This document shows positions 1,748-60,010 of a stretch of 64,000 nucleotides of DNA, piece after piece. The notes under the pieces were generated by a model, which ran no database searches, was not told the origin of the DNA, and saw nothing but the letters and a program-made list of their open reading frames with translations. Location of the stretch: NCBI RefSeq assembly GCF_003790525.1, contig NZ_CP033635.1; one strand, given 5' to 3'. The stretch's first letter is position 1. Each line of letters begins with the position of its first letter. Made by a program: the position numbers and the translations under genes. The stretch comes from Escherichia coli. GTDB taxonomy: Bacteria; Pseudomonadota; Gammaproteobacteria; Enterobacterales; Enterobacteriaceae.

Positions 1748-3148
1748 TTATTGTTCGAACTTCGGAGCAATCAGATTATCCAGATTGAATGTCTTCTCCC
1801 ATTCTTCCTGTGTGAGTAGCTTACGTTCGACAACCACTATCTGATGGAGGGATTTGCCTGTATGGTATGCTTCGTGCGCCATTTCAGAACACACCTTATA
1901 TCCCAGATGTGGCTTCAGGAGAGTCACAATACCGCAGGAATGCATTACCATCTCTGCAGTTCGATCGGAATTAGCTGTAATGCCATCAATGCATTTAGTT
2001 CGGAGTGTGTTACAGGCATTCGTCATCACCTTGAGTGAGGTGAACAGCGCAAAGGTGATGACCGGCTCCATAACGTTAAGCTCAAGCTGACCAGCAGATG
2101 CCGCCAGCATCACTGTGGTGTCCAGCCCCTGAACCAGGAAGCAAGACTGGTTTGTTACTTCCGGGATAACGGGGTTAACCTTACCAGGCATAATGGAAGA
2201 ACCCGGTTGCAATTGAGGCAGGTTAATTTCAGCCAGGCCGCAACGGGGGCCTGAAGCAAGCAGTCGAATGTCATTACAAACCTTGGTAAGCTTCACAGAG
2301 AGGCTCTTCATGGCCGAACTGAGTGCAACATATGCACCACAGTCGCTTGTGGCAGCGATGAGATCTTCACTGTTCCTGAAATTAATGCCTGTGATCTGGG
2401 CCAGATATTTCACGGCTAAAGCGGGATAATCCGGGTGAGCGGTAACACAGGTACCAATCGCAGTAGCACCAAGGTTTACAACCCGCAGGTGTTCCTGTGC
2501 ATTACGGATGACCCGAATTTCATCATTAATTGTAAAACCCCAGCCATGGAACTCCTGGCCGAGAGTCATTGGCACTGCATCCTGCAGGTGAGTACGTCCC
2601 ATCTTGAGCACTGTGCTGAACTCGTCAGCCTTTTTGTAGAATGCTCCTACGAGGTGTTCAACAGCTTCAAGCAATACATTGCTTCGCAGCAGCAATGCCA
2701 GATGTAATGCTGTCGGATATGTATCATTGGTGGACTGACCAAAATTAGCATGGTCGTTTGGCGAAACGCGTTTGTAATCCCCTTTAACGCTACCAAGTTT
2801 TTCTGCAGCAAGATTACAAATCACTTCATTGCAGTTCATATTGGTTGACGTTCCGGCTCCCCCCTGAAGCCAGTCGGTCACAAACTGTTCCCGGTACTTA
2901 CCATCAATTAATTGGTCGCAAGCCCAGATTAAAGCATCCGCAACATCAGCAGGAATTGTACCTAACTCCTTATTAGCCATCGCAGCTGCTTTTTTCACAT
3001 AACCGAAGGCAATGATGAAGAAGGGCTCCTGACTCATTGGCATTTCAGTAATATGGAAATTATCCTCACCACGAAGTGTCTGAACACCATAATAGCAATC
3101 ATCCGGAACTTCACGCTCACCAAGGAAATCGCTTTCAATACGAGACAT
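1748..3148 (-). CDS. aspartate ammonia-lyase / class II fumarase family protein (copy A)
   Basis: 466-aa ORF; MSRIESDFLGEREVPDD..YYGVQTLRG N-terminus, GGAGTSTNMN and GSSIMPGKVNPVIPE signature blocks typical of aspartase/fumarase C family; near-identical inverted copy at 30835-32235. Confidence 0.88.
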   Translation of the reverse strand: MSRIESDFLGEREVPDDCYYGVQTLRGEDNFHITEMPMSQEPFFIIAFGYVKKAAAMANKELGTIPADVADALIWACDQLIDGKYREQFVTDWLQGGAGTSTNMNCNEVICNLAAEKLGSVKGDYKRVSPNDHANFGQSTNDTYPTALHLALLLRSNVLLEAVEHLVGAFYKKADEFSTVLKMGRTHLQDAVPMTLGQEFHGWGFTINDEIRVIRNAQEHLRVVNLGATAIGTCVTAHPDYPALAVKYLAQITGINFRNSEDLIAATSDCGAYVALSSAMKSLSVKLTKVCNDIRLLASGPRCGLAEINLPQLQPGSSIMPGKVNPVIPEVTNQSCFLVQGLDTTVMLAASAGQLELNVMEPVITFALFTSLKVMTNACNTLRTKCIDGITANSDRTAEMVMHSCGIVTLLKPHLGYKVCSEMAHEAYHTGKSLHQIVVVERKLLTQEEWEKTFNLDNLIAPKFEQ

Positions 3149-4013
3149 AATTTTCTAACTCCATTTTTCGAAAACAATGTGACAATAACAAATTGTTTTC
3201 ATAAAACACTTATCCAACATTAAGAATGAATACTTATAATCACCAGATGACATAACCATTACCATCTAATGGAATATATTTAAACTAATAAGATAAACTT
3301 AAAACGTGATATCAAGCACATTTTTATAACGTTAAAATTAGTGGGTTATTTAGCAATCAAATATAACCAGTAAAAGCCCGAAATATGCAGATAACGCTGC
3401 ACTAATATGATTAAGATCAAAAAAAACAATTCCGCAATCAAACTTATTATTAATGCTGATTTTTTAAATCATGATTAAGTAGAACTATTTTATAATAGCA
3501 TCCCGGTTTGGTCACATCCTTCAGAAAAACAACCTGTTTACCACCATAGAAAATCTATATCTCTGCTAGGTTTTCCAGCGTTGTAGATATAGTCACTCAT
3601 GGTGATTCTTATTAAGATAAGAGTTTTTACACGGGAATGTTATTGCACTTCTAATTGATAAATCTTGGAATAGAGTAGAAAACGTAATGTTTCCACTCCA
3701 TCTTCCGCTTTAATGGTTTGTAATTTGAGTTAGATCATGGATTTTAACATCCATTATGATTAATTATTTTTAGATGATTTGATCACTAAATCGTCTTTCA
3801 GGGTGTAACGGCATTAATCATCACAAGCTAAAAAAACGCCATACTGTAATGGAGTCTGTATTTTATGTTCAATCATGCAAAGGCTCTTCATAATTATCAT
3901 TTCTCTCTTGGAAAAATGACAGCCTGAACATAGCATAAATTCACGTTCTTCAGAGTCAGAAGGTGTTAATAAACTGTCCCTAAAATCTGGAAAATGTTGA
4001 AGAAGGCATCTCA
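3149..4013. promoter_or_regulatory. AT-rich divergent intergenic region between aspartase-like copy A (minus) and pepT-like gene (plus); likely carries both promoters
   Basis: about 865 bp without convincing ORF, strongly AT-rich, flanked by divergently oriented start codons. Confidence 0.3.
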
Positions 4014-5270
4014 ATGGATATTGTCGAACGCTTTATCAATTATACAAAAATTAATACCACTACCTCACGAGAAAACGGCGCAAAAGGGATCATGCCTTCA
4101 TCTCCTGGTCAGATGAAACTTGCGAAATTGTTGGTGAGTGAACTTGAAGCATTGGGTATGGAGGATATTATTCTCAGAGAGAATGCTATCGTAACAGCAA
4201 CACTCCCTGCAAATACTGACGAAACAATCCCCGTCGTTTCCTTTTTTGGACATCTGGACACCAGTGCCGAACAGACAGCCGATACAAAAGCGCAACGATT
4301 ACCTTATAATGGGGGCGATCTCTGTCTGAACCCTGAACTGAATATTTATTTGCGTGAGAGTGAATTCCCGGAGCTCAAAAATTATATTGGCGATGACCTT
4401 ATAGTGACAGATGGTACCAGCCTTCTGGGGGCCGATGATAAAGCGGCGCTGGCGGCCATAATGAACGCACTTCAATTTCTGATTTCTCATCCTGAAATCA
4501 GGCATGGAGAAGTTAAAGTTGGGTTTGTGCCAGATGAAGAGCAGGGGTTACGGGGGGCCAAAGCCTTCGATGTTTCAGAGTTTGGCGCAGATTTTGGCTA
4601 CACTCTGGATTGCTGCGGTATTGGAGAATTTGTTTACGAAAACTGGAATGCGGGTGATGCAGAAATTATCTTTACCGGCCAGTCTGCACACCCTATGTCA
4701 GCGAAAGGCAAGCTTAAGAACTCTCTTTTGATGGCTCACAAATTCATTTCGATGTTGCCAGGAGGAGAAGCGCCTGAATATACAGAAGGACGCGAAGGCT
4801 ATTATTGGGTGAAACAGTTACAGGGAAACAGTGCCAGAACTGTACTAAAACTGGATATACGAGATTTCAGCGAGGAAGGATATCACGCCCGGAAGACATT
4901 TGTACGCCAGCTTGCAGAAAGTGCTTGTGCATTATGGGGAGAAGGAAGCGTGATCTGCCAACTGAGCGATCGGTACGCCAATGTCTTTAACAGTCTGCAG
5001 GGAGAGGGGCATTATCCCATCGACATTGCCCTGCGAGCTTACCAACGATGTGGTATTACTCCGACACCGGTGGCGATGCGTGGAGGATATGATGGCGCTG
5101 TTCTTTCACAAAAAGGATTACCCTGCCCGAACATTTTTACCGGCGCACATAATTTCCATTCTATCTATGAATATCTTCCAGTCCGTTCACTTCGGGCGGC
5201 AAGTGATGTGGTTATTGCCATCATTCAGGAGACATTCAATGGGTTCACCACAGGGAATCGTGAGTCATGA
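4014..5270 (+). CDS. peptidase T-like tripeptidase (M20B family metallopeptidase)
   Basis: 418-aa ORF; blocks FFGHLDTS, TDGTSLLGADDKAA, VGFVPDEE, IFTGQSAHP resemble PepT/M20 family as recalled. Confidence 0.8.
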   Translation: MDIVERFINYTKINTTTSRENGAKGIMPSSPGQMKLAKLLVSELEALGMEDIILRENAIVTATLPANTDETIPVVSFFGHLDTSAEQTADTKAQRLPYNGGDLCLNPELNIYLRESEFPELKNYIGDDLIVTDGTSLLGADDKAALAAIMNALQFLISHPEIRHGEVKVGFVPDEEQGLRGAKAFDVSEFGADFGYTLDCCGIGEFVYENWNAGDAEIIFTGQSAHPMSAKGKLKNSLLMAHKFISMLPGGEAPEYTEGREGYYWVKQLQGNSARTVLKLDIRDFSEEGYHARKTFVRQLAESACALWGEGSVICQLSDRYANVFNSLQGEGHYPIDIALRAYQRCGITPTPVAMRGGYDGAVLSQKGLPCPNIFTGAHNFHSIYEYLPVRSLRAASDVVIAIIQETFNGFTTGNRES

Positions 5271-6628
5271 TTAAAGTTGTTATCGCGCTTCTTGTTATCG
5301 TGATAGTTGCTCGCTTAATCCTGAAAGGATATCGTGCAGAACCCGTGCTTTTTATTGCCGGGCTTGCGCTGATGGTTTGTACCTGGTTTACCGGTTGGGG
5401 CACAGTGTTACCGAAGGGCGTGTCCGGTACAGGAATTAGTTTTCTTGATCCTTTCGAAGTCATGCGCAATTTATTCAGTACCCGTGCGGCTGATCTCGGT
5501 CTGATGATTATGACCCTGATGGGATTTGCGCATTACATGGACCATATCGGTGCGAATGAAGCGGTTGTCCGTGTGGTAACCCGGCCATTACGGACATTAC
5601 GTTCCCCCTATGTTCTGCTTTTTTTCTCTTATCTTTTCGCCAGTCTTCTTCAACTGGCTATCCCCTCAGCTACCGGACTTGCTGTTTTACTGATGGGAAC
5701 CATGTTTCCTATTATGCTCGGACTCGGGCTGTCAGCAGCGTCTGCCGCAGGGGTAATTGCCACCTCTCTTGGTGTGGCGTACACACCGACAGCCATTGAC
5801 GCCATACGAGGCTCTGAAGCGGTAAATATGGATGTGGTGGAGTATGTTGTCTATCATCAGGGGCCTGCTGCTCTGGCGACTGTTCTGATTGTCGGTATCA
5901 GCCACTTTTTCTGGCAGAAACACTGTGATCGTAAAGCTGGAACATTACCTCATGAAATTGGTACGACAACGGTCATAAAAGCAGGCAGTACGCCGGCTTA
6001 TTATGCTCTGCTACCTATGCTACCGATCCTGATGGCCGTTGGCTCATCGGAGATTTTTGTCACCGGAATTAATCTCAATATCATTACGATTGTTCTTATC
6101 TCAATGGCAATTTGCATGCTGATCGAATGGGTCCGTAAATGTGATCTGAAAGCTGTATGTGACGGGTTTACCCATTTCCTGAAAGGAATGGGGACAGCAT
6201 TTACCGGCGTGGTGGGCTTACTGGTGGCCGCAGGTGTGTTTGCTCATGGGATTAAAAGCATTGGCGCGATAGATCAATTAATTTTGATGGCAGAGCACGT
6301 TGGGTTACCCCCTTTTGCGATGGGCATCGTTTTTGCTCTGGTTACACTGGCTGCAGCTGTCATTATGGGATCGGGCAATGCGCCATTTCTGGCTTTTGTT
6401 GAACTGATACCACAAATCGCTGCCAGCATGGGCGTGAATGCCATATCGATGATCCTGCCTATGCAGCAGGCTTCCCATATGGGGCGTGCGATGTCTCCCG
6501 TATCTGGCGTGGTTATAGCGGTTTCCAGTGGAGCAAATATAACTCCCTTCGAAGTGGTAAAACGCACTGCTTTACCCCTGATAGTTGGTTTTGTTTTTCA
6601 CTCTGCGATTATCGGTATTTTTTATTAA
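5267..6628 (+). CDS. DcuC-family (C4-dicarboxylate anaerobic carrier-like) transporter
   Basis: 453-aa membrane ORF; similarity to DcuC as recalled (ARLILKGY.., GNAPF.AFVE.IP, PVSGVV.AV); start ATG overlaps pepT-like stop (ATGA), so translationally coupled. Confidence 0.75.
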
Positions 6629-6639
6629 CTTGTTTTAGA

Positions 6640-8000
6640 TTGTCATCCTCCACGCCCAGAAGGATGTGGATTCCTGCTAATCAGGCTATTGCCGGAATCA
6701 TTTCGGTGGGCTCCTGCTTAAACAAAAGGCCTGACTGCACCATCTCTTTACAGGCAAGTACGGCGTGCCCTGCAGCTAAAATATTACGGGTGCCGTTTAC
6801 ATCGGCGCTCGCTGCATATGTGCGCCGGGCATGGCGCGTAGCGCCGTGACTGGCGCTGTTCTTCAACTGTGGTGGCTGAAGAACGACTAAGAGGTGAAAG
6901 TCCTCCACACACCCGGTGAGGGGAAGTGTTAGCGGAAGGCAAGGGTGTTCATCGCGAGGTGAAATCTGAAGGAAGCCGGATGCAAAATGCTGGCCTGACG
7001 AACAGGAAGCGGTTAAGGCGGCGCAGCAGGGTAAGGTGGCACAAATCACCAAAGCCCGATACTCACACGGAACGCTGTGACGTAAAGCCGACAGGCATAA
7101 GCAGGAAAGTCGCGTGAATTACCCCGGGAGATCTGTCGCCCTGCCAGTGTGCTACCGGTGCCGTGAGGCGCCGGGATGGGGCGGCAGAAGTCAGCCGACG
7201 CCGTAGTAGTGCTGCAAAACCGGCAGCATGAAGGGCCGAACATGATTAACTGTGATTAGGACATCCGAACCCGATGATGATTAATGAAGCACACGCGCAG
7301 GCAACTGCGGCCAGCGGCAGAGGAGACGGACAGTATCCGTCAGGGCTGCATGATGGCGCTGAAATCAGCACGGCGGCGGGTGGGCAAACGAAAGCGGAAG
7401 TGCCGCTGACGATGGAAGCGGTGATAACGAGAGAAAACCTGATGCTGGCTTATCAGCGCGTGGTGGAAAACAAAGGTGTGTCGGAGTTGAAACCGTGGCT
7501 GAAGAAGAACTGGCGCAGCGTATGGCAGGTATTGATTGACGGAAACTACCAGCCGCGGGCAATACGCCGGATGGATATCCCGAAGCCGGATGGCGGCGTG
7601 AGAACCTTAGGCATCCCGACGGTGGTGGACAGGCTTATCCAGCAGGCGATAGCGCAGCAGTTAAGCGCCATCGTGGACACAGCTTCTGCCGCTACGCAGA
7701 CGACTGCAACATCTACGTAAGCAGCCGGAAAGCGGGCGACCATCTGCTGAAGGACATCAGGGCGTTCGTGGAGAGCAAACTGAAACAGAAGGTGAATGAG
7801 AAGAAGAGCGCGGTGGCGCGCCCGTGGGAGCGGAAGTTGTGGGCTGACAGTGACGGACCGTGCTGCTTCACCAAACGCCTTGGACGGCAGGCGGAACTTG
7901 GATCGTTACGTACTTGAAAAGTGGATCAACAAGAGGGTTCAACGAGACTGGGGAGTTATATTTCTTTCTCAAGGTCCGGCATTTATCTCTTCCACATGAA
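6640..8000 (+). mobile_element. group II intron remnant (5' RNA domains plus internally deleted reverse-transcriptase/maturase ORF); boundaries approximate
   Basis: ORF 7274-7720 has the RT domain 0-2 signature (ENLMLAYQRV..IPKPDGGVRTLGIPTVVDRLIQQAIAQQL); a downstream frame has RYADDCNIYV..KLKQKVNEKKSAVARPWERK (RT domain 5-7 and thumb); the intervening RT domains are missing and no domain V/VI was seen. Confidence 0.7.
7274..7720 (+). pseudogene. group II intron reverse transcriptase/maturase, N-terminal fragment (internally deleted, frameshifted)
   Basis: see group II intron remnant; RT motifs split between frames, indicating deletion. Confidence 0.7.
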
Positions 8001-8243: not shown

Positions 8244-9275
8244 ATGAATAAAATAAAAGGTATAACAGTAATGGCAGCCTTCGCATTGTGTATAGGATAT
8301 GCTCACGCTGAATCTCAAACGCCAATACGCCTTGTAATTCATGGTGGAGCTGGCACCATAACAAAAGATACTATTACACCTGAACAAGAAAAACAATACA
8401 GAGAAAAGTTAACAGATGCACTAAATGCTGGGTATGCTGTGCTTAATAGTGGAGGAAGTAGCCTTGATGCTGTTCAGCGTGCAATTAATGTTATGGAGGA
8501 CTCTCCCCTCTTCAATGCTGGAAAAGGCGCTGTCTTTACTCATGATGGCAAAAACGAACTTGATGCTGCAATTATGGATGGAAAAACCAAAATGGCCGGA
8601 GCCGTTGCAGGAGTGACGACCATAAAAAACCCTATAAACGCTGCTTATGCAGTTATGACTAAAAGCCCTCATGTATTAATGATCTCTAATGGTGCGGAAC
8701 TATTTGCAAAAGAGCAAGGCTTAGTTATGGTTGAGCCAGCATATTTCAAAACTGATTTCCGTTGGCAACAGCTACAGAACGCTTTAAAAGACGAAAAAAT
8801 AACCCTTGATCATAATGGTAAATCAGCATCTCTTTTACTCCCCCCAAAGAACTACGACTATAAATATGGAACTGTTGGAGCAGTCGCGTTGGACAAAGAT
8901 GGTAATCTGGCAGCTGGAACATCAACAGGAGGTATGACAAATAAACGTTACGGACGCGTAGGTGACTCGCCAATAATTGGAGCAGGAACCTATGCCGATA
9001 ATAATACCGTTGCTGTTTCTGCTACAGGTACTGGAGAAATGTTTATTAGAACTTCAACTGCATACAATATTGCTGCTCAGGTGAAATATAAAAATACACC
9101 ATTGAAAGAAGCAGCTCAAAATGCGCTTGATGAAGTTAAAAACATTAATGGTAGTGGTGGTGTCATTGTTCTAGATAAGAATGGTAATTATACTATGAGT
9201 TTCAATACAGAAGGGATGTATCGTGGAACTATCGGCAACGATGGTAAAGCTATCGTATCAATTTATGAACAATAG
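8244..9275 (+). CDS. isoaspartyl peptidase / L-asparaginase family Ntn-hydrolase with N-terminal signal peptide (periplasmic)
   Basis: RBS AAGGAGG 7 nt upstream of ATG 8244; signal peptide MNKIKGITVMAAFALCIGYAHA; blocks GTVGAVALD.DGNLAAGTSTGGMTNK and GTGE.FIR match IaaA/plant-type asparaginase family. Confidence 0.85.
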   Translation: MNKIKGITVMAAFALCIGYAHAESQTPIRLVIHGGAGTITKDTITPEQEKQYREKLTDALNAGYAVLNSGGSSLDAVQRAINVMEDSPLFNAGKGAVFTHDGKNELDAAIMDGKTKMAGAVAGVTTIKNPINAAYAVMTKSPHVLMISNGAELFAKEQGLVMVEPAYFKTDFRWQQLQNALKDEKITLDHNGKSASLLLPPKNYDYKYGTVGAVALDKDGNLAAGTSTGGMTNKRYGRVGDSPIIGAGTYADNNTVAVSATGTGEMFIRTSTAYNIAAQVKYKNTPLKEAAQNALDEVKNINGSGGVIVLDKNGNYTMSFNTEGMYRGTIGNDGKAIVSIYEQ

Positions 9276-9304
9276 ATAAAATATTTTATACATCGTCTTG
9301 CCCT

Positions 9305-9338
9305 TAAGGCCCATTTTAAAAGCGGGCCTTTATTTAAT
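9305..9338 (+). terminator. rho-independent terminator after isoaspartyl peptidase gene
   Basis: stem AAGGCCC/GGGCCTT followed by T-rich run. Confidence 0.6.
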
Positions 9339-9571
9339 AAATATTCTTAACGCCTCCTTATTTCACAGCTAAAAGAAGAGTAATTCTTAGACTCATTAAC
9401 CGTCTCTCTACCGAGACGCTTACCCATATCCAGCCCGTACCCTGCAGAAATACCGCGATGTATAGCGTTTCTGTGTCATGGTGAAAAGTACAGGAGGAAA
9501 TTATAAATTCTGGGAATATCCCTGGTTATAACATTTTGTAATACATTAAGTGATATCATTATTTATGATGT

Positions 9572-9605
9572 AAAAAGGGGCCTGCAATAGCCCCTGAAAA
9601 ATCAG
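9572..9605. terminator. bidirectional hairpin terminator (AGGGGC..GCCCCT flanked by A/T runs) downstream of the minus-strand small gene
   Basis: perfect 6-bp stem with A-run upstream and downstream. Confidence 0.5.
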
Positions 9606-9612
9606 AAAACCT

Positions 9613-9891
9613 TCATTTTATACCTGCAGCGCTCATTGACTGCCGCAGTGCATCCAGTCCTTGCTTACAGGCCATATCCTGACTGGCGTCAGGTAAAGCT
9701 GCAATTTGTTTTCGGGATTGTTCATATTGCTGTTTCAGCGTATTAACCTGTGCTTCTGGTGTTCCCATTTCCTTCATCTTTGCTACAAAATTATCGATTT
9801 CTTTATAATACTCTTCACATGCCGGAGTCAGTGCTGCACTGGCTGACATACTGAATAATACTGTAGTAAGTAAGACTGTAATTGTTTTCAT
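9613..9891 (-). CDS. small secreted protein of unknown function (signal peptide, two Cys)
   Basis: start at internal Met with AAGGAG RBS; MKTITVLLTTVLFSMSASA signal peptide; 92 aa. Confidence 0.6.
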   Translation of the reverse strand: MKTITVLLTTVLFSMSASAALTPACEEYYKEIDNFVAKMKEMGTPEAQVNTLKQQYEQSRKQIAALPDASQDMACKQGLDALRQSMSAAGIK

Positions 9892-10249
9892 AAATACACT
9901 CCTTTTTTGTACAAAAACACTCAACCTTCCTGAGAAGGCCATAAAAGCAGAATGTTATTGGAATATCAGCAAAACGAGTATTCCCACAGGTTTTTTCTTG
10001 GTATCAGAATTCTGGGATATAAATCCAGTAAATGATGGAGTAAGTCCGAAAGAATATGTGGTGTGATTACGGACTACCAGTAAATATTACTGATTTCATG
10101 CCATGAAAATACTCATTATAAAAAGCGCCTGTATGCTGCTTATAAAATATCAGAATCCGATGTGTCAAAATGTGATATATATTAAAAAATAAATAAGACT
10201 GACCCAATATACCAAAAGAGGATGACAGAAGTGAAGGATAACCGTATTA

Positions 10250-11344
10250 TTCTGGACCAGAAAGGAGCCTGTACATAGATTTGTGTAATTGCCTGATTTT
10301 GATATGTTCAATTCACCTTCAAATGAAGGTGAATTTATGGCCGACAAACAATTGCAGGCTCTGGCTAACGAACTGGCCAAAAATCTCAAAACTCCTGAAG
10401 ATCTCAGTCAGTTCGATCGCCTGCTCAAGAAAATCAAAGTTGAGGCTGCTCTCAACGCTGAACTGACTCACCATCTGGGACATGAAAAAAATCAACCCAA
10501 ATCGGGAACCAACTCCCGTAATGGCTATTCCACGAAAACCGTCCCACTACCGACGGGCCGATGGAATTACGTACTCCACGTGATCGTGATGGTTCCTTCG
10601 AACCACAACTGGTGAAGAAAAATAAGACCTGCATTATCGGCATGAACAACCAGATCCTGGCGCTGTATGCCAGAGGGATGACTACTCGCGAAATTACCTC
10701 AGTCTTCAAAGAAATGTACGATGCAGACGTTTCTCCGGCGCTGATATCGAAAATCACCGATGCCGTAATCGACCAGGTTGTAGAATGGCAAAACCGTCCT
10801 CTGGATGCGATTTATCCCATTGTTTATCTTGACTGTATTGTCCTGAAAGTACGGCAGGACAGCCGGGTTATCAGCAAAGCGGTGTTCCTGGCTCTGGGTA
10901 TTAACCTTGATGGTCAGAAAGAGCTGCCAGGTATGTGGCTGGCCGAAAATGAAGGTGCAAAGTTCTGGCTGAATGTACTGACGGAACTGAAAAATCGCGG
11001 CCTGAACGATATCCTTATCGCCTGCGTGGACGGCCTGAAAGGCTTCCCGGAAGCGATTAATGCCGTCTACCCGGAGACGCAGCTCCTGTTGTGCATAGTA
11101 CATATGGTACGCAACAGCCTGCGGTTAGGGCGTGGAAAGACTATAAAGCGGTAACCCGTGACCTGAAACAGGTTTACCACACAGCCACGGAAGAAGGCGC
11201 GTTGCAGGCGCTGGATGCGTTCGGGAAGGAATGGGATGCACGGTACCCGCAGATAAGTCGCAGCTGGCAGGCAAACTGGCCGAATGTTGCCACCTTCTTC
11301 GTGTACCCGGAGGCGAGCCGCAAGGTTATAATAAATAACCGTCA
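10250..11344 (+). mobile_element. IS256-family insertion sequence remnant (3' end interrupted)
   Basis: transposase ORFs 10337-11340 match IS256-family (mutator-type) transposase blocks (TREI..FKEMYDADVSP, YPIVYLDCIVLKVRQ, LIACVDGLKGFPEAI); C-terminal about 80 aa missing at junction with IS50-like element. Confidence 0.75.
10337..11340 (+). pseudogene. IS256-family transposase (frameshifted, C-terminally truncated)
   Basis: coding split over three frames (10337-10615, 10561-11154, 11091-11340). Confidence 0.75.
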
Positions 11345-12760
11345 ATACGGTGCTCCGTTAACGCTTACGTCTGTTATGGTACTTTCTGATTGTTATTCAT
11401 GGGCTAACGAGCAGTTTGGACATGCCAGTCTCGGTGATCCGCGTCGTACACGACGCCTTGTGTCACTGGCCTCTTCTCTCGCTCAGCATGCAGGTCTTTC
11501 TATCGTGAAATCATCCCAGTCCACTGCTCAGGTTGAAGGTGCGTACCGCCTGATGCGTAACCCGTCAGTGTCTCCGGAAGCCATTGCCGAAGCCGGATTT
11601 ACCGCCACTGCAAGGGCATGTGAGGCACATCCGCTGCTCCTCGCACTGGAAGACACCACCACCATTAGTTTCAGCCACAGTACGGCATTTGATGACCTAG
11701 GGAATACCACTACTAACCCGAAGACGCGCGGGCTGCTGGCTCACTCTGTCCTGATGTATGCCCCCGACAGCGCCCTGCCAGTCGGTCTTATCGAACAGCA
11801 GCGCTGGAGTCGGGCCACGGACACCTACGGTGTTAAGCACCAGCGAAAAGAACGTCCCTGTGAAGAAAAAGAAAGTTATCGCTGGCAGCAGGCTTCGGAG
11901 CGTATGGCTGAACGGCTGGGGGAGATACAGAAACGGGTAATCACTGTCTGTGGCCTGGAAGCGGATATCTGGCATTACCTGCATTATAAAGTCAGCCACG
12001 GACAGCGCTTCGTGGTGCGTGCTGCACAGAATAGCCGGCAGGAAGAAGCACCCGGCAAGCTCTTCGAACTGCCGGAAGTCCTGACAACCGCATGAAGCCA
12101 CATGCTGAATGTGATGTAAAAAGGCGGGCGCGCAGCCCGCCAGGCCCGGATGTTCACCAGTTACAGCGAAGTCGGCATAAAAAATCCCGACAACAGCGGC
12201 CAGGCGCTTCCGCTCACGTATGTCTGTTGCCGGGAGCAGGCAGAGGACGGTGCCTGCTGGCATCTGCTGACATCAGAAAAAGTGGCGAGTGCCGCCGATG
12301 CGCGACGTATCGTCAGCCATTACGAGCGACGCTGGTTGATAGAGGAATACCACAAGGCGTGGAAAAGTGGTGGTACATGTGTGGAATCGCTGCGTATGCA
12401 GACCCGGGATAACCTTGAGCGCATAGTGGTTATCAAGGCGTTTATCGCGGTACGGGTGCTGGGCCTGCGGCAGGGAGGTATCAGTGAAGAAACACAAAAT
12501 GACAGCTGTGAGAAAATACTGTTGCCGACAGAGTGGAAACTGCTGTGGGTTAAGCTGGAAGGAAAACCGCTTCCGTCACAGACGCCGACACTGAAATGGG
12601 CCTGTCTGAAACTGGCGAAACTGAGGCGATGGCATGACAGCAAACGCACAGGTCGCCCCGGTTGTGTAGTCATGTGGGATGGCTGGTTCAGACTTCAGGA
12701 TATGGTTGAGGGTTACCTGGTGATGGAGTCTCTTGATCAGGAGCTCTGATCAAGAGACAG
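11345..12760 (+). mobile_element. IS4-family (IS50/Tn5-transposase-like) element inserted into the IS256-like remnant; left boundary approximate
   Basis: transposase similar to Tn5 Tnp as recalled (LGDPRRTRRLV, LALEDTTTISFSH, RWLIEEYHKAWKSG, WHDSKRTGRPG); right end CTGTCTCTTGATCAGAGCTC (revcomp at 12741-12760) resembles IS50 inside-end sequence. Confidence 0.7.
11376..12749 (+). pseudogene. IS4-family (Tn5-like) transposase, frameshifted (11376-12095 and 12150-12749)
   Basis: two consecutive ORFs in different frames together cover a Tn5-like transposase. Confidence 0.7.
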
Positions 12761-12905
12761 CTAGTACAGTAGGGGGTACCATTATTTAATTCCTGCAGTA
12801 CCAATTAACACAGAGCATTCTGCCTCTGTGAACATATGATATCCAGACTTGACTAATTGTTATTGTGAATGTTTTTATTGCTGTTTTAGCCTCTAATCGA
12901 TGCTT

Positions 12906-13619
12906 TCAGTGTTCCAGCGCGATAGCGCAAACATGTTCAAGCTTAGAGAGTGAATGGTATAGTTCTGGTAATGTCATTTTTTTTCTAATCACGACCTTAA
13001 GGTTAACTTCTATTCTTCCCTTTTTAACATCGCGAATAGTGAACGCTTCAATAATATTTTTTTGTTGATTAATACACTCTATCAGGGCTTGTAGCCCTGA
13101 TCTTTCGTCAAGAGTAACATGAACTTTTACTTTACCCGGAAATTGATTCTTAGCTTGCAAAAAGAGCACAAAATAGCTGAGTTTTATTGCAATCATGAAC
13201 AAAGCAGTGGTAACCAAAGCATGCATATAAAACCCAGCACCACATGTAATTCCCACCCCAGCCGAAGCCCAAACGATAGCTGCAGTTGTTAGTCCAGATA
13301 TAGCATCGTCATGGCGATGAAGGATAACACCTGCGCCGAGAAAACCTACACCGCTGATAATCTGTGCTGCCAGTCGCATCGGATCGCTACGTATATTCAT
13401 CGAGATTTCAGCGTAATATTCTGCAGACTGAATCGATACAATTGTCAGAACACAACTGGCGACTGAAATAATGACGCACGTTTTAAATCCAACAGGCTTC
13501 CCTTTCGATTCTCTTTCAAGGCCAATAATGCCACCAAGGATAAACGCGACGCAAATTTTGCCCAGTGTAATAAAGAGAGATTCTTCTTCACTGAATAATA
13601 AGAAGGATAACGTATTCAT
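12906..13619 (-). CDS. MgtC/SapB family membrane protein
   Basis: 237 aa; N-terminal hydrophobic domain with GIIGLERE motif typical of MgtC family, plus soluble C-terminal domain. Confidence 0.75.
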   Translation of the reverse strand: MNTLSFLLFSEEESLFITLGKICVAFILGGIIGLERESKGKPVGFKTCVIISVASCVLTIVSIQSAEYYAEISMNIRSDPMRLAAQIISGVGFLGAGVILHRHDDAISGLTTAAIVWASAGVGITCGAGFYMHALVTTALFMIAIKLSYFVLFLQAKNQFPGKVKVHVTLDERSGLQALIECINQQKNIIEAFTIRDVKKGRIEVNLKVVIRKKMTLPELYHSLSKLEHVCAIALEH

Positions 13620-13682
13620 ATTTCCTCCGGAAAAAACTCACTCCAAACTGTGTACGAAGGTCTCCTTTTCTGCCCCATGAGG

Positions 13683-14666
13683 CTACGCGCCGTAGTTCTG
13701 GATATAGTGCTCTATCAGCGAAATAAGCCGCGGGTTATCGATGCTCTGCAGAATTGTGACCTGTGCACCTTTTGGTTCAGGGATCCCAATATTGAGGCGT
13801 AATGTGTCACGTCCATAGCAACAAGTCATTCCGCGTGTAATGCCTTCCAGAGATACATCCAGATAATCTTCAGCCGTTGTTGCAAGAGAGGGATCCAGTA
13901 ACCAGGCAATGGTTAACACATCGTGGATCCAACACCCAGGCAGATTGCGGGTTTGCATAGAGTATGTAATCCATGGTCGAATGGTTTGTGCCAAATAACG
14001 GCTAAGCCCGTTTTCTGTTTTTGCTAGACGATCCAAATCGGCGTGAAGCATTTGGGTTTGCGTTGTCACATCCATCGGGACCAGCGTGACTGGCGCACCG
14101 CTGGTGAGCACCGCATGAGCCGCCTCAGGGTCCAGACCAAAATTTGTATCTTTCAGGTAGCCTGGAACATTGAACACGCCACCCATAACGACGATATTTT
14201 TGACCGCGTGAACAATCTGCGGGTAAAGCTGCAGGGCGATGGCTACATTAGTGAGGGGGCCGGTAGCAACCAACGTTATTTCGCCTGGATTACGACAGAT
14301 GAGTTCACCTATTGCTTCAGGCGCATGGGGTTCTACCTGCTGGCACAATGCTGGAGCAGGAACATTCGACCAGAGTTGCCGTAAACCAAACTGATCGACA
14401 CCATGATCCAGTTTTTCACGCCAGGGTTGCGGATCTTCCAAGAGCGCACGCGAGGCACCACGGTAGACCGCAACAGGAATATCCAATTGTGTAATGAGAT
14501 CTCTAGCGACCGCATATCCCACGTCTACCGGCGTATTTCCGGCAACAGTGGTGATCATTTCCAGCGCGATTTGCGGTGCGGCAATGGCCAGCGCCAGCGC
14601 CAGACCGTCGTCGATATTAGCGCCGGGAATGCCGTTCCCCGGATCGCAGTCAATAATGATACGCAT
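13683..14666 (-). CDS. inosine-uridine-preferring nucleoside hydrolase family protein
   Basis: N-terminal IIIDCDPG..DDGLALALA aspartate-cluster motif of IU-nucleoside hydrolases; start chosen at MRIIIDCDPG. Confidence 0.8.
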   Translation of the reverse strand: MRIIIDCDPGNGIPGANIDDGLALALAIAAPQIALEMITTVAGNTPVDVGYAVARDLITQLDIPVAVYRGASRALLEDPQPWREKLDHGVDQFGLRQLWSNVPAPALCQQVEPHAPEAIGELICRNPGEITLVATGPLTNVAIALQLYPQIVHAVKNIVVMGGVFNVPGYLKDTNFGLDPEAAHAVLTSGAPVTLVPMDVTTQTQMLHADLDRLAKTENGLSRYLAQTIRPWITYSMQTRNLPGCWIHDVLTIAWLLDPSLATTAEDYLDVSLEGITRGMTCCYGRDTLRLNIGIPEPKGAQVTILQSIDNPRLISLIEHYIQNYGA

Positions 14667-20235: not shown

Positions 20236-20536
20236 AGATGGAGGAAACAGGACTATAGACGCTCTACCTTATTCTCCTGAACCTGTGTTGTTTCGCGGCG
20301 TCTTCCTGTAACGACTACTTCTGACGCTGGCGTTAAATTATTACCTGTTGAGATAACGCCGAATGAACAGAAAAATACGATGATGTCTATTGCTCCATCT
20401 TTATCCATTTCCCCCCATAACACAGTCAGTGTCAGTTCCTGTAAGGTTGAGTTCCGTCTCAGTAACATGATGTGTTGGAAAATCCTTCACCAGAGCTGCT
20501 CAAGGTGTTAATCCGTGAGTTAGCCAGGAGGAGACG

Positions 20537-20869
20537 ATGATCTCACTACCATCCGGTACCCGTATCTGCCTCATTGCCGGGGTAGCTGATATGCGTAAAT
20601 CCTTCAACGGACTGGGAAAACAGGGTCAACATGTGCTGAATTATAATCCCTTCTTCGGCCACCTGTTTATCTTCCGAGGCCGACGGGGTGACACTGTTAA
20701 AATACTCTGGGCTGATGGTCTGTGTCTTTTCACCAAGCGCCAGGAGGAAGGCAATTTATCTGGCTTGCGGTACGTGACGGCGGGGTATCCTTTACCCGCC
20801 CGCAGCTGGCAATGCTCCTTAGTAAGCTGGGCTAGCGTCAGCCAAAAACATCACGCCTTAACGCGCTGA
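20537..20869 (+). pseudogene. IS66-family TnpB (orf2) fragment, degenerate
   Basis: MISLPSGTRI..AGVADMRKSFNGL..GHLFIFRGRRGD..K.LWADGLCLFTKR matches IS66 TnpB; C-terminus diverges. Confidence 0.7.
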
Positions 20870-21082
20870 CAATGTGGTAAAAATATCATAGCCGGATTAT
20901 AAAAACGGTCATGAATCAGAACTACCTCATTCGCATCGCTGACGCTGGAAAAGCTGCTGTCTGAGTACTAAGTCGTTGAAAGCATACTCTTCTTTCCCTC
21001 CTGTTTAGCGCCTGATATCCCTTTTCCATTTCTGCCCGACGCATGTCATTTTTTTATGCATTGTTCTTTTTGTGATCTAAAT

Positions 21083-30834: not shown

Positions 30835-32235
30835 ATGTCTCGTATTGAAAGCGATTTCCTTGGTGAGCGTGAAATTCCGGATGATTGCTATTATGGTGTT
30901 CAGACACTTCGTGGAAAAGATAATTTCCATATCACTGAAATGCCAATGAGTCAGGAGCCTTTCTTCATCATTGCCTTCGGTTATGTGAAAAAAGCAGCTG
31001 CGATGGCTAATAAGGAGTTAGGTACAATTCCTGCTGATGTTGCGGATGCTTTAATCTGGGCTTGCGACCAATTAATTGATGGTAAGTACCGGGAACAGTT
31101 TGTGACCGACTGGCTTCAGGGGGGAGCCGGAACGTCAACCAATATGAACTGCAATGAAGTGATTTGTAATCTTGCTGCAGAAAAACTTGGTAGCGTTAAA
31201 GGGGATTACAAACGCGTTTCGCCAAACGACCATGCTAATTTTGGTCAGTCCACCAATGATACATATCCGACAGCATTACATCTGGCATTGCTGCTGCGAA
31301 GCAATGTATTGCTTGAAGCTGTTGAACACCTCGTAGGAGCATTCTACAAAAAGGCTGACGAGTTCAGCACAGTGCTCAAGATGGGACGTACTCACCTGCA
31401 GGATGCAGTGCCAATGACTCTCGGCCAGGAGTTCCATGGCTGGGGTTTTACAATTAATGATGAAATTCGGGTCATCCGTAATGCACAGGAACACCTGCGG
31501 GTTGTAAACCTTGGTGCTACTGCGATTGGTACCTGTGTTACCGCTCACCCGGATTATCCCGCTTTAGCCGTGAAATATCTGGCCCAGATCACAGGCATTA
31601 ATTTCAGGAACAGTGAAGATCTCATCGCTGCCACAAGCGACTGTGGTGCATATGTTGCACTCAGTTCGGCCATGAAGAGCCTCTCTGTGAAGCTTACCAA
31701 GGTTTGTAATGACATTCGACTGCTTGCTTCAGGCCCCCGTTGCGGCCTGGCTGAAATTAACCTGCCTCAATTGCAACCGGGTTCTTCCATTATGCCTGGT
31801 AAGGTTAACCCCGTTATCCCGGAAGTAACAAACCAGTCTTGCTTCCTGGTTCAGGGGCTGGACACCACAGTGATGCTGGCGGCATCTGCTGGTCAGCTTG
31901 AGCTTAACGTTATGGAGCCGGTCATCACCTTTGCGCTGTTCACCTCACTCAAGGTGATGACGAATGCCTGTAACACACTCCGAACTAAATGCATTGATGG
32001 CATTACAGCTAATTCCGATCGAACTGCAGAGATGGTAATGCATTCCTGCGGTATTGTGACTCTCCTGAAGCCACATCTGGGATATAAGGTGTGTTCTGAA
32101 ATGGCGCACGAAGCATACCATACAGGCAAATCCCTCCATCAGATAGTGGTTGTCGAACGTAAGCTACTCACACAGGAAGAATGGGAGAAGACATTCAATC
32201 TGGATAATCTGATTGCTCCGAAGTTCGAACAATAA
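30835..32235 (+). CDS. aspartate ammonia-lyase / class II fumarase family protein (copy B)
   Basis: 466 aa, differs from copy A at about 2 residues (V14I, E28K); about 50 bp of upstream sequence is also shared. Confidence 0.88.
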   Translation: MSRIESDFLGEREIPDDCYYGVQTLRGKDNFHITEMPMSQEPFFIIAFGYVKKAAAMANKELGTIPADVADALIWACDQLIDGKYREQFVTDWLQGGAGTSTNMNCNEVICNLAAEKLGSVKGDYKRVSPNDHANFGQSTNDTYPTALHLALLLRSNVLLEAVEHLVGAFYKKADEFSTVLKMGRTHLQDAVPMTLGQEFHGWGFTINDEIRVIRNAQEHLRVVNLGATAIGTCVTAHPDYPALAVKYLAQITGINFRNSEDLIAATSDCGAYVALSSAMKSLSVKLTKVCNDIRLLASGPRCGLAEINLPQLQPGSSIMPGKVNPVIPEVTNQSCFLVQGLDTTVMLAASAGQLELNVMEPVITFALFTSLKVMTNACNTLRTKCIDGITANSDRTAEMVMHSCGIVTLLKPHLGYKVCSEMAHEAYHTGKSLHQIVVVERKLLTQEEWEKTFNLDNLIAPKFEQ

Positions 32236-32239
32236 AATG

Positions 32240-33175
<936 letters not shown>

Positions 33176-33179
33176 TGTT

Positions 33180-33670
33180 CTAAGGTGAGCATATTACCTA
33201 TGCTCAGGTGGCCAAATTCAGTATGCCAGAACCAGAACATCTTGTGGTCAGGCAGAGGAAGAGCAAACTGTTACTGGACTCACTGCATGCGTGGATGGTG
33301 GAGAAAAATGCCACGCTGTCCAAAAATCCAGACTGGGAGAATGGTTCAGCTGTGTACTGAATCAGTGGGGCGCACTCTGTTATTACAGTGTTGACGGTCA
33401 GGCGGAGGCAGACATAATGCCGCGGAAAAAGCCCTTTGTGCCATCTGTCTCGGAAATAAAAACTTTATGTTCTTCGACGGCGAGCGCAGTGCACTGTTGT
33501 ATGGGCTTATCGGCACTTGCCTTCTGAACGACATTGATCCGGAAGAGTATCTGCGCCATATCCTGAGCGTACTGCCGGAATAACCTTCCAACCGTATTGA
33601 TGAACTCCTGCCATGGAACGTAGTTCTCACCAATAAATAAGCATCAATATGATTCTCCATTAACGCTTAC
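33180..33670 (+). mobile_element. IS66-family transposase C-terminal fragment with IS66 right end
   Basis: translation NQWGALCYYSVDGQAEADN..LCLGRKNFMFFDGERSALLYGLIGTCLLNDIDPEEYLRHILSVLPEWPSNRIDELLPWN typical of IS66 TnpC C-terminus; a related end copy is at 59829-60010. Confidence 0.7.
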
Positions 33671-59828: not shown

Positions 59829-60010
59829 AGTAAGCGTCAACGGAGCACCATATTGACGCTTATTTATTGGTGAGAACTACGTTCCATGGCAGGAGTTCGT
59901 CAACACGGTTGGAGGGCCATTCCGGCAGTATGCTCAGAATATGGCGCAGATACGCTTCCGGATCGATACCGTTCAGACGGCAGGTGCCTGCTTTTCCGGC
60001 AACAAGCAGG
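59829..60010 (-). mobile_element. IS66-family right-end fragment (transposase C-terminal about 45 codons plus terminal sequence)
   Basis: about 90% identical to revcomp of 33590-33670; minus-strand translation GIDPEAYLRHILSILPEWPSNRVDELLPWN. Confidence 0.7.

Follow-up and report, generated by a model that had tools for sequence, protein, structure and literature searches.

A decayed three-element insertion-sequence scar at a module seam of an Escherichia coli genomic island

Three co-oriented insertion-sequence fragments lie in series between positions 10265 and 12760 of the 64-kb stretch of E. coli DNA analysed here (hereafter the window): positions 1–1067 of an IS256-like element, 39 bp of an ISEc23-like element of the IS66 family, and positions 159–1550 of the IS4-family element ISEc13. 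The region is very probably a non-functional scar of three insertion sequences at the seam of two cargo modules, fused by a combination of insertion and deletion. None of the fragments can transpose, because each keeps at most one of its ends and no transposase gene is intact. An earlier sequence-only reading had described the region as an old, decayed pile-up in which a Tn5/IS50-like element sits inside an IS256-like one. The general idea of an old pile-up holds, whereas the proposed nesting does not, and the start that had been placed at 10250 lies at 10265.

Both transposase pseudogenes are already present in RefSeq, as “IS256 family transposase, frameshifted, missing C-terminus” (10337–11330) and “IS4 family transposase, internal stop” (11376–12749), and all three elements belong to well-known families. 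What the present analysis adds to that annotation is limited to the unannotated 39-bp IS66 stub and a corrected topology. The features are as follows.

10265–11329, plus strand: IS256-family fragment, relative of IS1414; first 1067 bp of a 1314-bp element, with the left inverted repeat GAGCCTGTACATAGATTTGTGTAATTGCC starting at 10265
10337–11329, plus strand: IS256-family transposase pseudogene; two frameshifts, truncated so that the last remaining codon corresponds to aa 332 of 402
11330–11368, plus strand: right terminus (39 bp) of an element of the IS66 family that resembles ISEc23; it holds the final two tnpC codons with their stop, followed by the terminal inverted repeat with the tip ...GCTTAC; not annotated in RefSeq
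11369–12760, plus strand: ISEc13 fragment (IS4 family, IS50/Tn5-like); positions 159–1550 of 1550, 96.3% identity to the reference copy
11376–12749, plus strand: ISEc13 transposase pseudogene; single frame, with TGA at 12093, TAA at 12117 and D193G
12728–12760, plus strand: ISEc13 right end, present in all copies; the reverse complement of its last 19 bp is CTGTCTCTTGATCAGAGCT, which is IS50 inside-end-like
12761–12905, no strand assigned: native flank of the MgtC/nucleoside-hydrolase module; neither IS sequence nor a remainder of the IS256-like element

The three insertion-sequence fragments

The first fragment was correctly recognised in the earlier reading as carrying an IS256-family transposase pseudogene. 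Pfam detects the Mutator-type DDE domain (Transposase_mut, PF00872) on three pieces spanning 10337–11329 (E 5.8e-4, 2.9e-68 and 3.3e-9), which cover profile positions 15–69, 71–263 and 268–330 and place the element in the IS256 family. It shares with IS1414 the family, the 1314–1315-bp length class, the gene layout, the Transposase_mut domain and the terminal repeats (GAGCCTGT...TGTGTAA.TGCC). In contrast to IS1414, the window copy is truncated and frameshifted and lacks the EAST1 frame, and because its DNA identity to IS1414 positions 1–1067 is only 81.7%, it represents a sibling lineage and not IS1414 itself. Plasmid copies of this lineage, many of them in E. coli, are 96.0–96.6% identical to the window fragment. 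The closest intact relative, a 1314-bp copy on the Citrobacter freundii plasmid p6_A (L015:1501–2814; 96.4% identity), encodes the 402-aa transposase WP_049043034.1 and is annotated as “IS256 family transposase”, with no element name.

Mapped against the intact p6_A copy, the IS256-like gene has suffered 1-nt deletions near 10543 and 11126, and it is these two deletions that split the tblastn match of the transposase into three HSPs in three frames. The copy ends at element position 1067, so that 248 bp and 70 codons (aa 333–402) are missing; the absence of the C-terminus had been noted before, with its length put at 80 codons. Only the left of the two cognate terminal repeats is kept (at 10265). 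The right repeat is absent from the 64-kb window, and a blastn search of the whole window with the right part of the element at word size 7 gave no significant match. For comparison, an IS1414 copy (in L007) carries an 8-bp target duplication, TGGCGATG.

IS1414, which according to the citation in PMC12585946 was described by McVeigh et al (2000), carries astA, the gene for EAST1, within its transposase gene, read in the -1 frame (PMC12585946). In the window element, the frame homologous to astA lacks an ATG where astA begins and runs into a TAG at about codon 16, and the same is true of the intact Citrobacter copy. Thus, this lineage does not encode EAST1.

The 39 bp that follow (11330–11368) are homologous to neither neighbour: IS256 homology ends at 11329 and ISEc13 homology begins at 11369. 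They match positions 2494–2532 of the 2532-bp ISEc23 at 37 of 39 positions, ending exactly at the element tip with the family-typical ...TTAC, and 38/39 agree with the 3′ end of the IS66-family fragment that plasmid pMB06102 (L009) carries. Their reverse complement begins with GTAAGCGTTAACGGAGCACCGTATTGACG, in keeping with the IS66 terminal repeat (GTAAGCG...). On these 37–38 matches over 39 bp, the stub is assigned to the terminus of an IS66-family element. For comparison, an intact chromosomal ISEc23 (L014) ends in ...GACGCTTAC and is flanked by an 8-bp duplication, AGAAATAC. Of the IS66-family gene set tnpA–tnpB–tnpC, the window retains just the two final codons and the stop of tnpC, and the remainder of the element, including its left end, has been lost.

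Two other assignments of this short segment were considered and rejected. That the IS256 transposase continues through 11330–11369 in diverged and frameshifted form (its TTNAIESLN region) is ruled out both by the match to an IS66 terminus at 37–38 of 39 positions and by a 96% identical relative of the IS256-like element (L008), which diverges from the window exactly at 11329. A weak MAFFT alignment of 11330–11369 to the ISEc13 leader is alignment noise.

The third fragment is 96% identical at the DNA level to copies annotated as “IS4-like element ISEc13 family transposase”. Such copies are annotated by PGAP on pMAR2 and on many IncF and IncX plasmids; they match the window over positions 159–1550 and share its right end. 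Six plasmid copies of ISEc13 in different contexts share about 158 bp more on the left in an alignment of their upstream regions, beginning with CTGTCTCTTATACACAA(A/G)T, and the full element is about 1550 bp long. Intact plasmid copies are flanked by target duplications of 8–9 bp, for example CTGCAAGAA and CTCTACCGG. The window copy begins only after these 158 bp, and no left inverted repeat (CTGTCTCTTATACACAAAT) was found anywhere in the 64 kb. The terminal repeat (CTGTCTCTT...), looked for at both ends, was found only on the right (12742–12760). The 9-mer flanking that end, CTAGTACAG, occurs only once in the window, so there is no target duplication.

The right end itself is well defined. 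It contains a 13-bp perfect palindrome (12728–12740/12746–12758) that overlaps the last transposase codons, and CTGATCAAGAGACAG at 12746–12760 is the true terminus, as had been proposed from its resemblance to an IS50 inside end: the flanks of six other ISEc13 copies diverge directly after GAGACAG. For the same reason, a pMAR2 match that extends to 12774 was set aside as chance similarity. The window copy differs from the others by one changed base in the terminal 19 bp.

The assignment of this fragment to a Tn5/IS50-like IS4-family transposase was likewise borne out. The intact ISEc13 transposase matches the solved Tn5 transposase over its whole length (E 6e-84), and it scores above the Pfam cut-offs for Tnp_DNA_bind and DDE_Tnp_1, with Dimer_Tnp_Tn5 at 24.1 bits, below the 26.7-bit cut-off. 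In the window, the N-terminal piece of the gene retains Tnp_DNA_bind (E 7.6e-20), and DDE_Tnp_1 reaches 22.8 bits, just below the 23-bit cut-off. ISEc13 thus carries Tn5-type transposase domains.

Both transposase genes had been taken to be frameshifted, which is correct for the IS256-like gene but not for that of ISEc13. The latter aligns as one frame over aa 1–457, with 22 substitutions, and is interrupted instead by two in-frame stops, TGA at 12093 (codon 240) and TAA at 12117 (codon 248). In addition, it carries D193G in the motif VCDREADI, which aligns to ...VCDREADI... of Tn5 at D188 (chain numbering), the second catalytic aspartate of that enzyme. The DDE triad is therefore not intact in the window: the second Asp has become Gly, with the first Asp and the Glu unchanged.

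The ends of ISEc13 also resemble those of Tn5. The right end of intact copies is identical at 19/19 positions to the IS50 inside end. On the left, 17/19 positions of the terminus CTGTCTCTTATACACAAAT agree with the outside end of Tn5 (outside-end sequence from PMC3347997).

An open reading frame at 11091–12095 and a shorter one starting at 11376 cover the 5′ part of the ISEc13 gene. The predicted product of either would contain an intact Tn5-type N-terminal DNA-binding domain without catalysis. Similar fragments, annotated as “IS4/Tn5 family transposase DNA-binding protein”, are kept in many E. coli lineages, among them ST131, Nissle 1917 and O157:H7.

Joints and flanks of the fragments

The two internal joints differ in character. 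At 11368|11369, the natural terminus of the IS66 stub directly abuts ISEc13 position 159. Because the stub ends exactly at its natural tip and 11369 corresponds to ISEc13 position 159, this is a genuine IS66-type transposition joint, created by an ISEc23-like element that inserted into the ISEc13 leader just before the ATG. The only true nesting in the window is that of IS66 into ISEc13.

The other joint, 11329|11330, brings IS256-like position 1067 up against IS66 position 2494; in comparison with the intact sequences, no bases are shared at the break and there is no microhomology. Since both points are internal and the two elements are unrelated, this cannot be a transposition joint of either. 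From the arrangement of the joined ends, we infer a scar of non-homologous deletion or joining; with no microhomology at the joint, the mechanism is not readable from the sequence. The earlier reading had the IS256 frame running directly into the Tn5-like frame at about 11340. A single frame, the ORF at 11091–12095, does read through, but there is no direct joint at that point, as the 39 bp of IS66 lie between.

These joints bear on the proposal that ISEc13 transposed into the IS256-like element, whose distal part was lost later. The two elements are indeed adjacent and co-oriented, a single ORF reads across them, and the IS256-like element is cut within its transposase gene, which speaks for such an insertion. 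It would, however, require the left end of ISEc13 at the joint, and ISEc13 begins there at its position 159, directly after an IS66 terminus. The inner left end is missing, no duplication is present, and the outer element is not resumed after 12760, its right part being absent from the window. The structure contradicts the nested arrangement on every count examined, and we consider it very unlikely.

The 145 bp that separate the end of ISEc13 from the MgtC stop codon move together with the MgtC module. This flank lies beside MgtC on plasmids L010 and L011 as well, and its junction with the ISEc13 end is shared with plasmids that lack IS256-like sequence at that point. On pBEC1-S17-ESBL-09_1, flank and junction are kept and ISEc13 is cut at the equivalent of window position 12511, and on pB19374_1, which also has both, IS26 cuts at 12779. 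From 12793 onwards, strain VTB97074v has a “93% diverged” version of the flank, which adjoins MgtC without any IS. Thus, the right end of ISEc13 adjoins DNA of the MgtC module and not of the IS256-like element, and the nested model fails.

Within this flank, two candidates for the missing IS256 end were examined and rejected. A possible right repeat at about 12800–12826 (CCAATTAACACAGAGCATTCTGCCTC) gave no blastn match with the right 270 bp of the intact element at word size 7, and an imperfect inverted repeat formed by 10293–10310 and 12829–12846 likewise gave no blastn match with the right part of that element. The interval at about 12800–12846 is, moreover, conserved flank of the MgtC module in the IS-free strain.

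Distribution and proposed history of the scar

The locus is shared with other E. coli strains. Positions 1–31914 of the window are 99.997% identical to strain SMS-3-5, and positions 9000–14000 are 100% identical to the SMS-3-5 chromosome and to many other strains; these 5 kb are present as a whole in 179 of 5426 complete E. coli genomes. The RefSeq annotation of SMS-3-5 shows a large mosaic island, in which metabolic cassettes are separated by remnants of IS3, IS66, IS200, ISL3 and IS150 type. The scar marks a seam in this mosaic, with an asparaginase/DUF5339 module on its left and an MgtC/nucleoside-hydrolase/LacI/MFS module on its right. The three-fragment composite was found in about 195 of the 5426 complete genomes, mostly at 100% identity, at one chromosomal locus and always with the same flanks. 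In a promoter and terminator scan of 9900–13000, promoter-like sites were at background level and terminator-like sites were somewhat more frequent (9 vs 3.1 ± 1.9 in the background); none of them bears on the structure.

One plasmid, pLR4-171k_NDM, carries the same island segment, from pepT to MFS. In this copy, another 1.9 kb of the scar (window positions 10789–12701) is gone, the extra deletion lying at a 4-bp microhomology, ATGG.

High conservation of the composite, with 100% identity in many strains, and its presence on pLR4-171k_NDM might suggest a single chimeric unit, that is, a hybrid insertion sequence moving as one piece, the reading that had been named as the counterpart to nesting. 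However, the plasmid copy comprises the whole surrounding island segment and not the unit alone, and no plasmid in PLSDB carries the collinear composite. Both transposase genes are dead. Because the two outer ends do not belong together, with an IS256 repeat on the left and an IS4 repeat on the right, and because the composite occupies a single locus with invariably identical flanks, it is not a mobile chimera, and we regard such a unit as extremely improbable. Two plasmid matches with 93% query cover (H1 and H2) that could pass for the same composite were rejected: they carry a true IS1414, and it follows ISEc13 instead of preceding it.

From the joints and flanks, we infer the following order of events, which leads to the three-element scar proposed above. 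ISEc13 would first have inserted beside the MgtC module, forming the junction that is common to the plasmids. An ISEc23-like element would then have entered ISEc13 in its leader, shortly before the start codon of the transposase gene, and an IS256-like element would have come to lie beside the DUF5339 gene. A single illegitimate (non-homologous) deletion or joining event could next have removed at least 2.9 kb: 248 bp from the end of the IS256-like element, 158 bp and 2493 bp from the starts of ISEc13 and of the IS66 element, respectively, and any intervening DNA. Finally, point mutations would have disabled the remainder, namely the two 1-nt deletions, the two nonsense codons and the catalytic Asp-to-Gly exchange.

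A search with a synthetic ISEc23|ISEc13 junction did not reveal the exact intermediate, in which this locus would hold a complete IS66 element inserted at ISEc13 position 158/159. That search returned one genome only, E. coli A0 34/86 (L020), which carries an independent, nearby insertion. There, an intact ISEc23 sits in the same ISEc13 leader upstream of the ATG and in the same orientation. It differs in lying at another chromosomal locus and 22 bp further upstream, and in that both ISEc13 halves, the whole ISEc23 and an 8-bp duplication (TCTTATAT) are kept. Although independent, this event is a direct precedent for the proposed intermediate.

The joint at 11329|11330 might instead have arisen when two DNA molecules were joined, or through an inversion or translocation during assembly of the island, and not by local deletion. 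One such route would be illegitimate recombination between a chromosomal IS256-like copy and a plasmid-borne MgtC module with ISEc13::ISEc23. In favour of this, plasmids do carry the MgtC module with this ISEc13 end, IS remnants separate the modules of the mosaic island, and the joint lacks microhomology. The 64-kb window contains no reciprocal junction, and on present data the outcome would look the same as that of a deletion. By contrast, local deletion at a microhomology is directly documented at this very locus in another replicon, pLR4-171k_NDM. We consider this origin of the joint unlikely and favour deletion. The locus is inherited vertically and is still eroding.

A possible residual function, and significance

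There is at best a slim chance that the remnant retains a role. The ORF at 11091–12095, or the 239-codon ORF from the ATG at 11376, might be expressed, and its product might bind ISEc13 ends in trans and so damp the transposition of incoming plasmid-borne ISEc13.

The locus is an ordinary one and matters little in itself. Its analysis corrects an annotation-level reading, replacing a nest of two elements with a scar of three. It also illustrates on a small scale the way in which the modules of an island become joined and later decay, bringing together in one place a precise insertion of one IS into another, a blunt internal deletion and, in the plasmid-borne copy, a deletion at microhomology. 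The finding that this IS1414 sibling lineage lacks the EAST1 frame is useful when matches to astA or IS1414 are scored in genome surveys.

ISEc23 in the ISEc13 leader, and the ISEc13 right end

In the chromosome of E. coli A0 34/86 (comparison locus L020, positions 3726-7804), the leader of an ISEc13 copy is interrupted by an intact ISEc23, giving the order ISEc13 1-144, ISEc23 and ISEc13 ~137-1550, with an 8-bp duplication, TCTTATAT, at the insertion. This site lies 22 bp upstream of the joint between IS66 and ISEc13 sequence in the window, which suggests that ISEc23 targets the AT-rich ISEc13 leader repeatedly. The window contains three further IS66-family fragments, listed here with their identities:

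20289-20965, minus strand, ISEc23-like IS66-family fragment (84% identity)
33233-33670, minus strand, ISEc23-like IS66-family fragment (83% identity)
59830-59988, minus strand, ISEc23-like IS66-family fragment (96% identity)

None of these three supplies the part that is missing at 11330.

The right end of ISEc13 carries a perfect 13-bp palindrome (window 12728-12758; GTCTCTTGATCAG / CTGATCAAGAGAC, with a 5-nt spacer), which is an inverted duplicate of the inside-end-like terminus, overlaps the final transposase codons and is kept in every ISEc13 copy examined. Intact copies have three GATC sites at this palindrome, one of which is lost from the window copy by a change of GAGATC to GAGCTC. ISEc13-related fragments are also kept in many unrelated E. 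coli lineages, including the chromosomes of ST131, Nissle 1917 and O157:H7, where they are annotated as "IS4/Tn5 family transposase DNA-binding protein".

The scar and its neighboring cassette on plasmids

The cassette of MFS, LacI, nucleoside hydrolase and MgtC genes is also present on two large E. coli plasmids (L010, 4750-9447; L011, 5001-9430), with the same ISEc13 right-end junction as in the window. On its ISEc13 side, the cassette is truncated beside IS110 in one of these plasmids, and in the second IS26 makes the cut. At the opposite end, the MFS gene is followed by a partial Rpn-family pseudogene, beyond which lies panD. The island segment spanning pepT through the MFS transporter, with the scar in it, is also found on the NDM plasmid pLR4-171k_NDM (L019, 1-12966), where the scar has an additional 1.9-kb deletion (window 10789-12701) at ATGG microhomology.

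Further features of the island

Two aspartate ammonia-lyase genes (window ~1748-3148 and ~30836-32002) share ~99% identity over 1.1-1.45 kb, and each adjoins an anaerobic C4-dicarboxylate transporter gene; thus, a cassette appears to have been duplicated inside the island. The otherwise near-identical alignment with the SMS-3-5 chromosome is interrupted at window 31914-32269, where an inverted match of 196 bp flanks a discontinuity of ~350 bp. A small rearrangement or insertion therefore distinguishes the window strain from SMS-3-5.

The IS256-like sibling lineage of IS1414

A solo left end of the IS256-like element (103 bp; 94% identical to window 10264-10366) lies between dadX and cvrA in a K-12-type chromosome (L018, 2501-2603). 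It is fixed in K-12 and many other strains and is annotated as a partial hypothetical protein. Within the window element, the frame homologous to astA (EAST1) of IS1414 is closed at 11051-11098: it has AAG in place of the ATG and, at about codon 16, a TAG. In the intact Citrobacter freundii relative, this frame is closed in the same way. The IS1414 sibling lineage is thus toxin-free, and it could be mis-scored in surveys of astA and IS1414.
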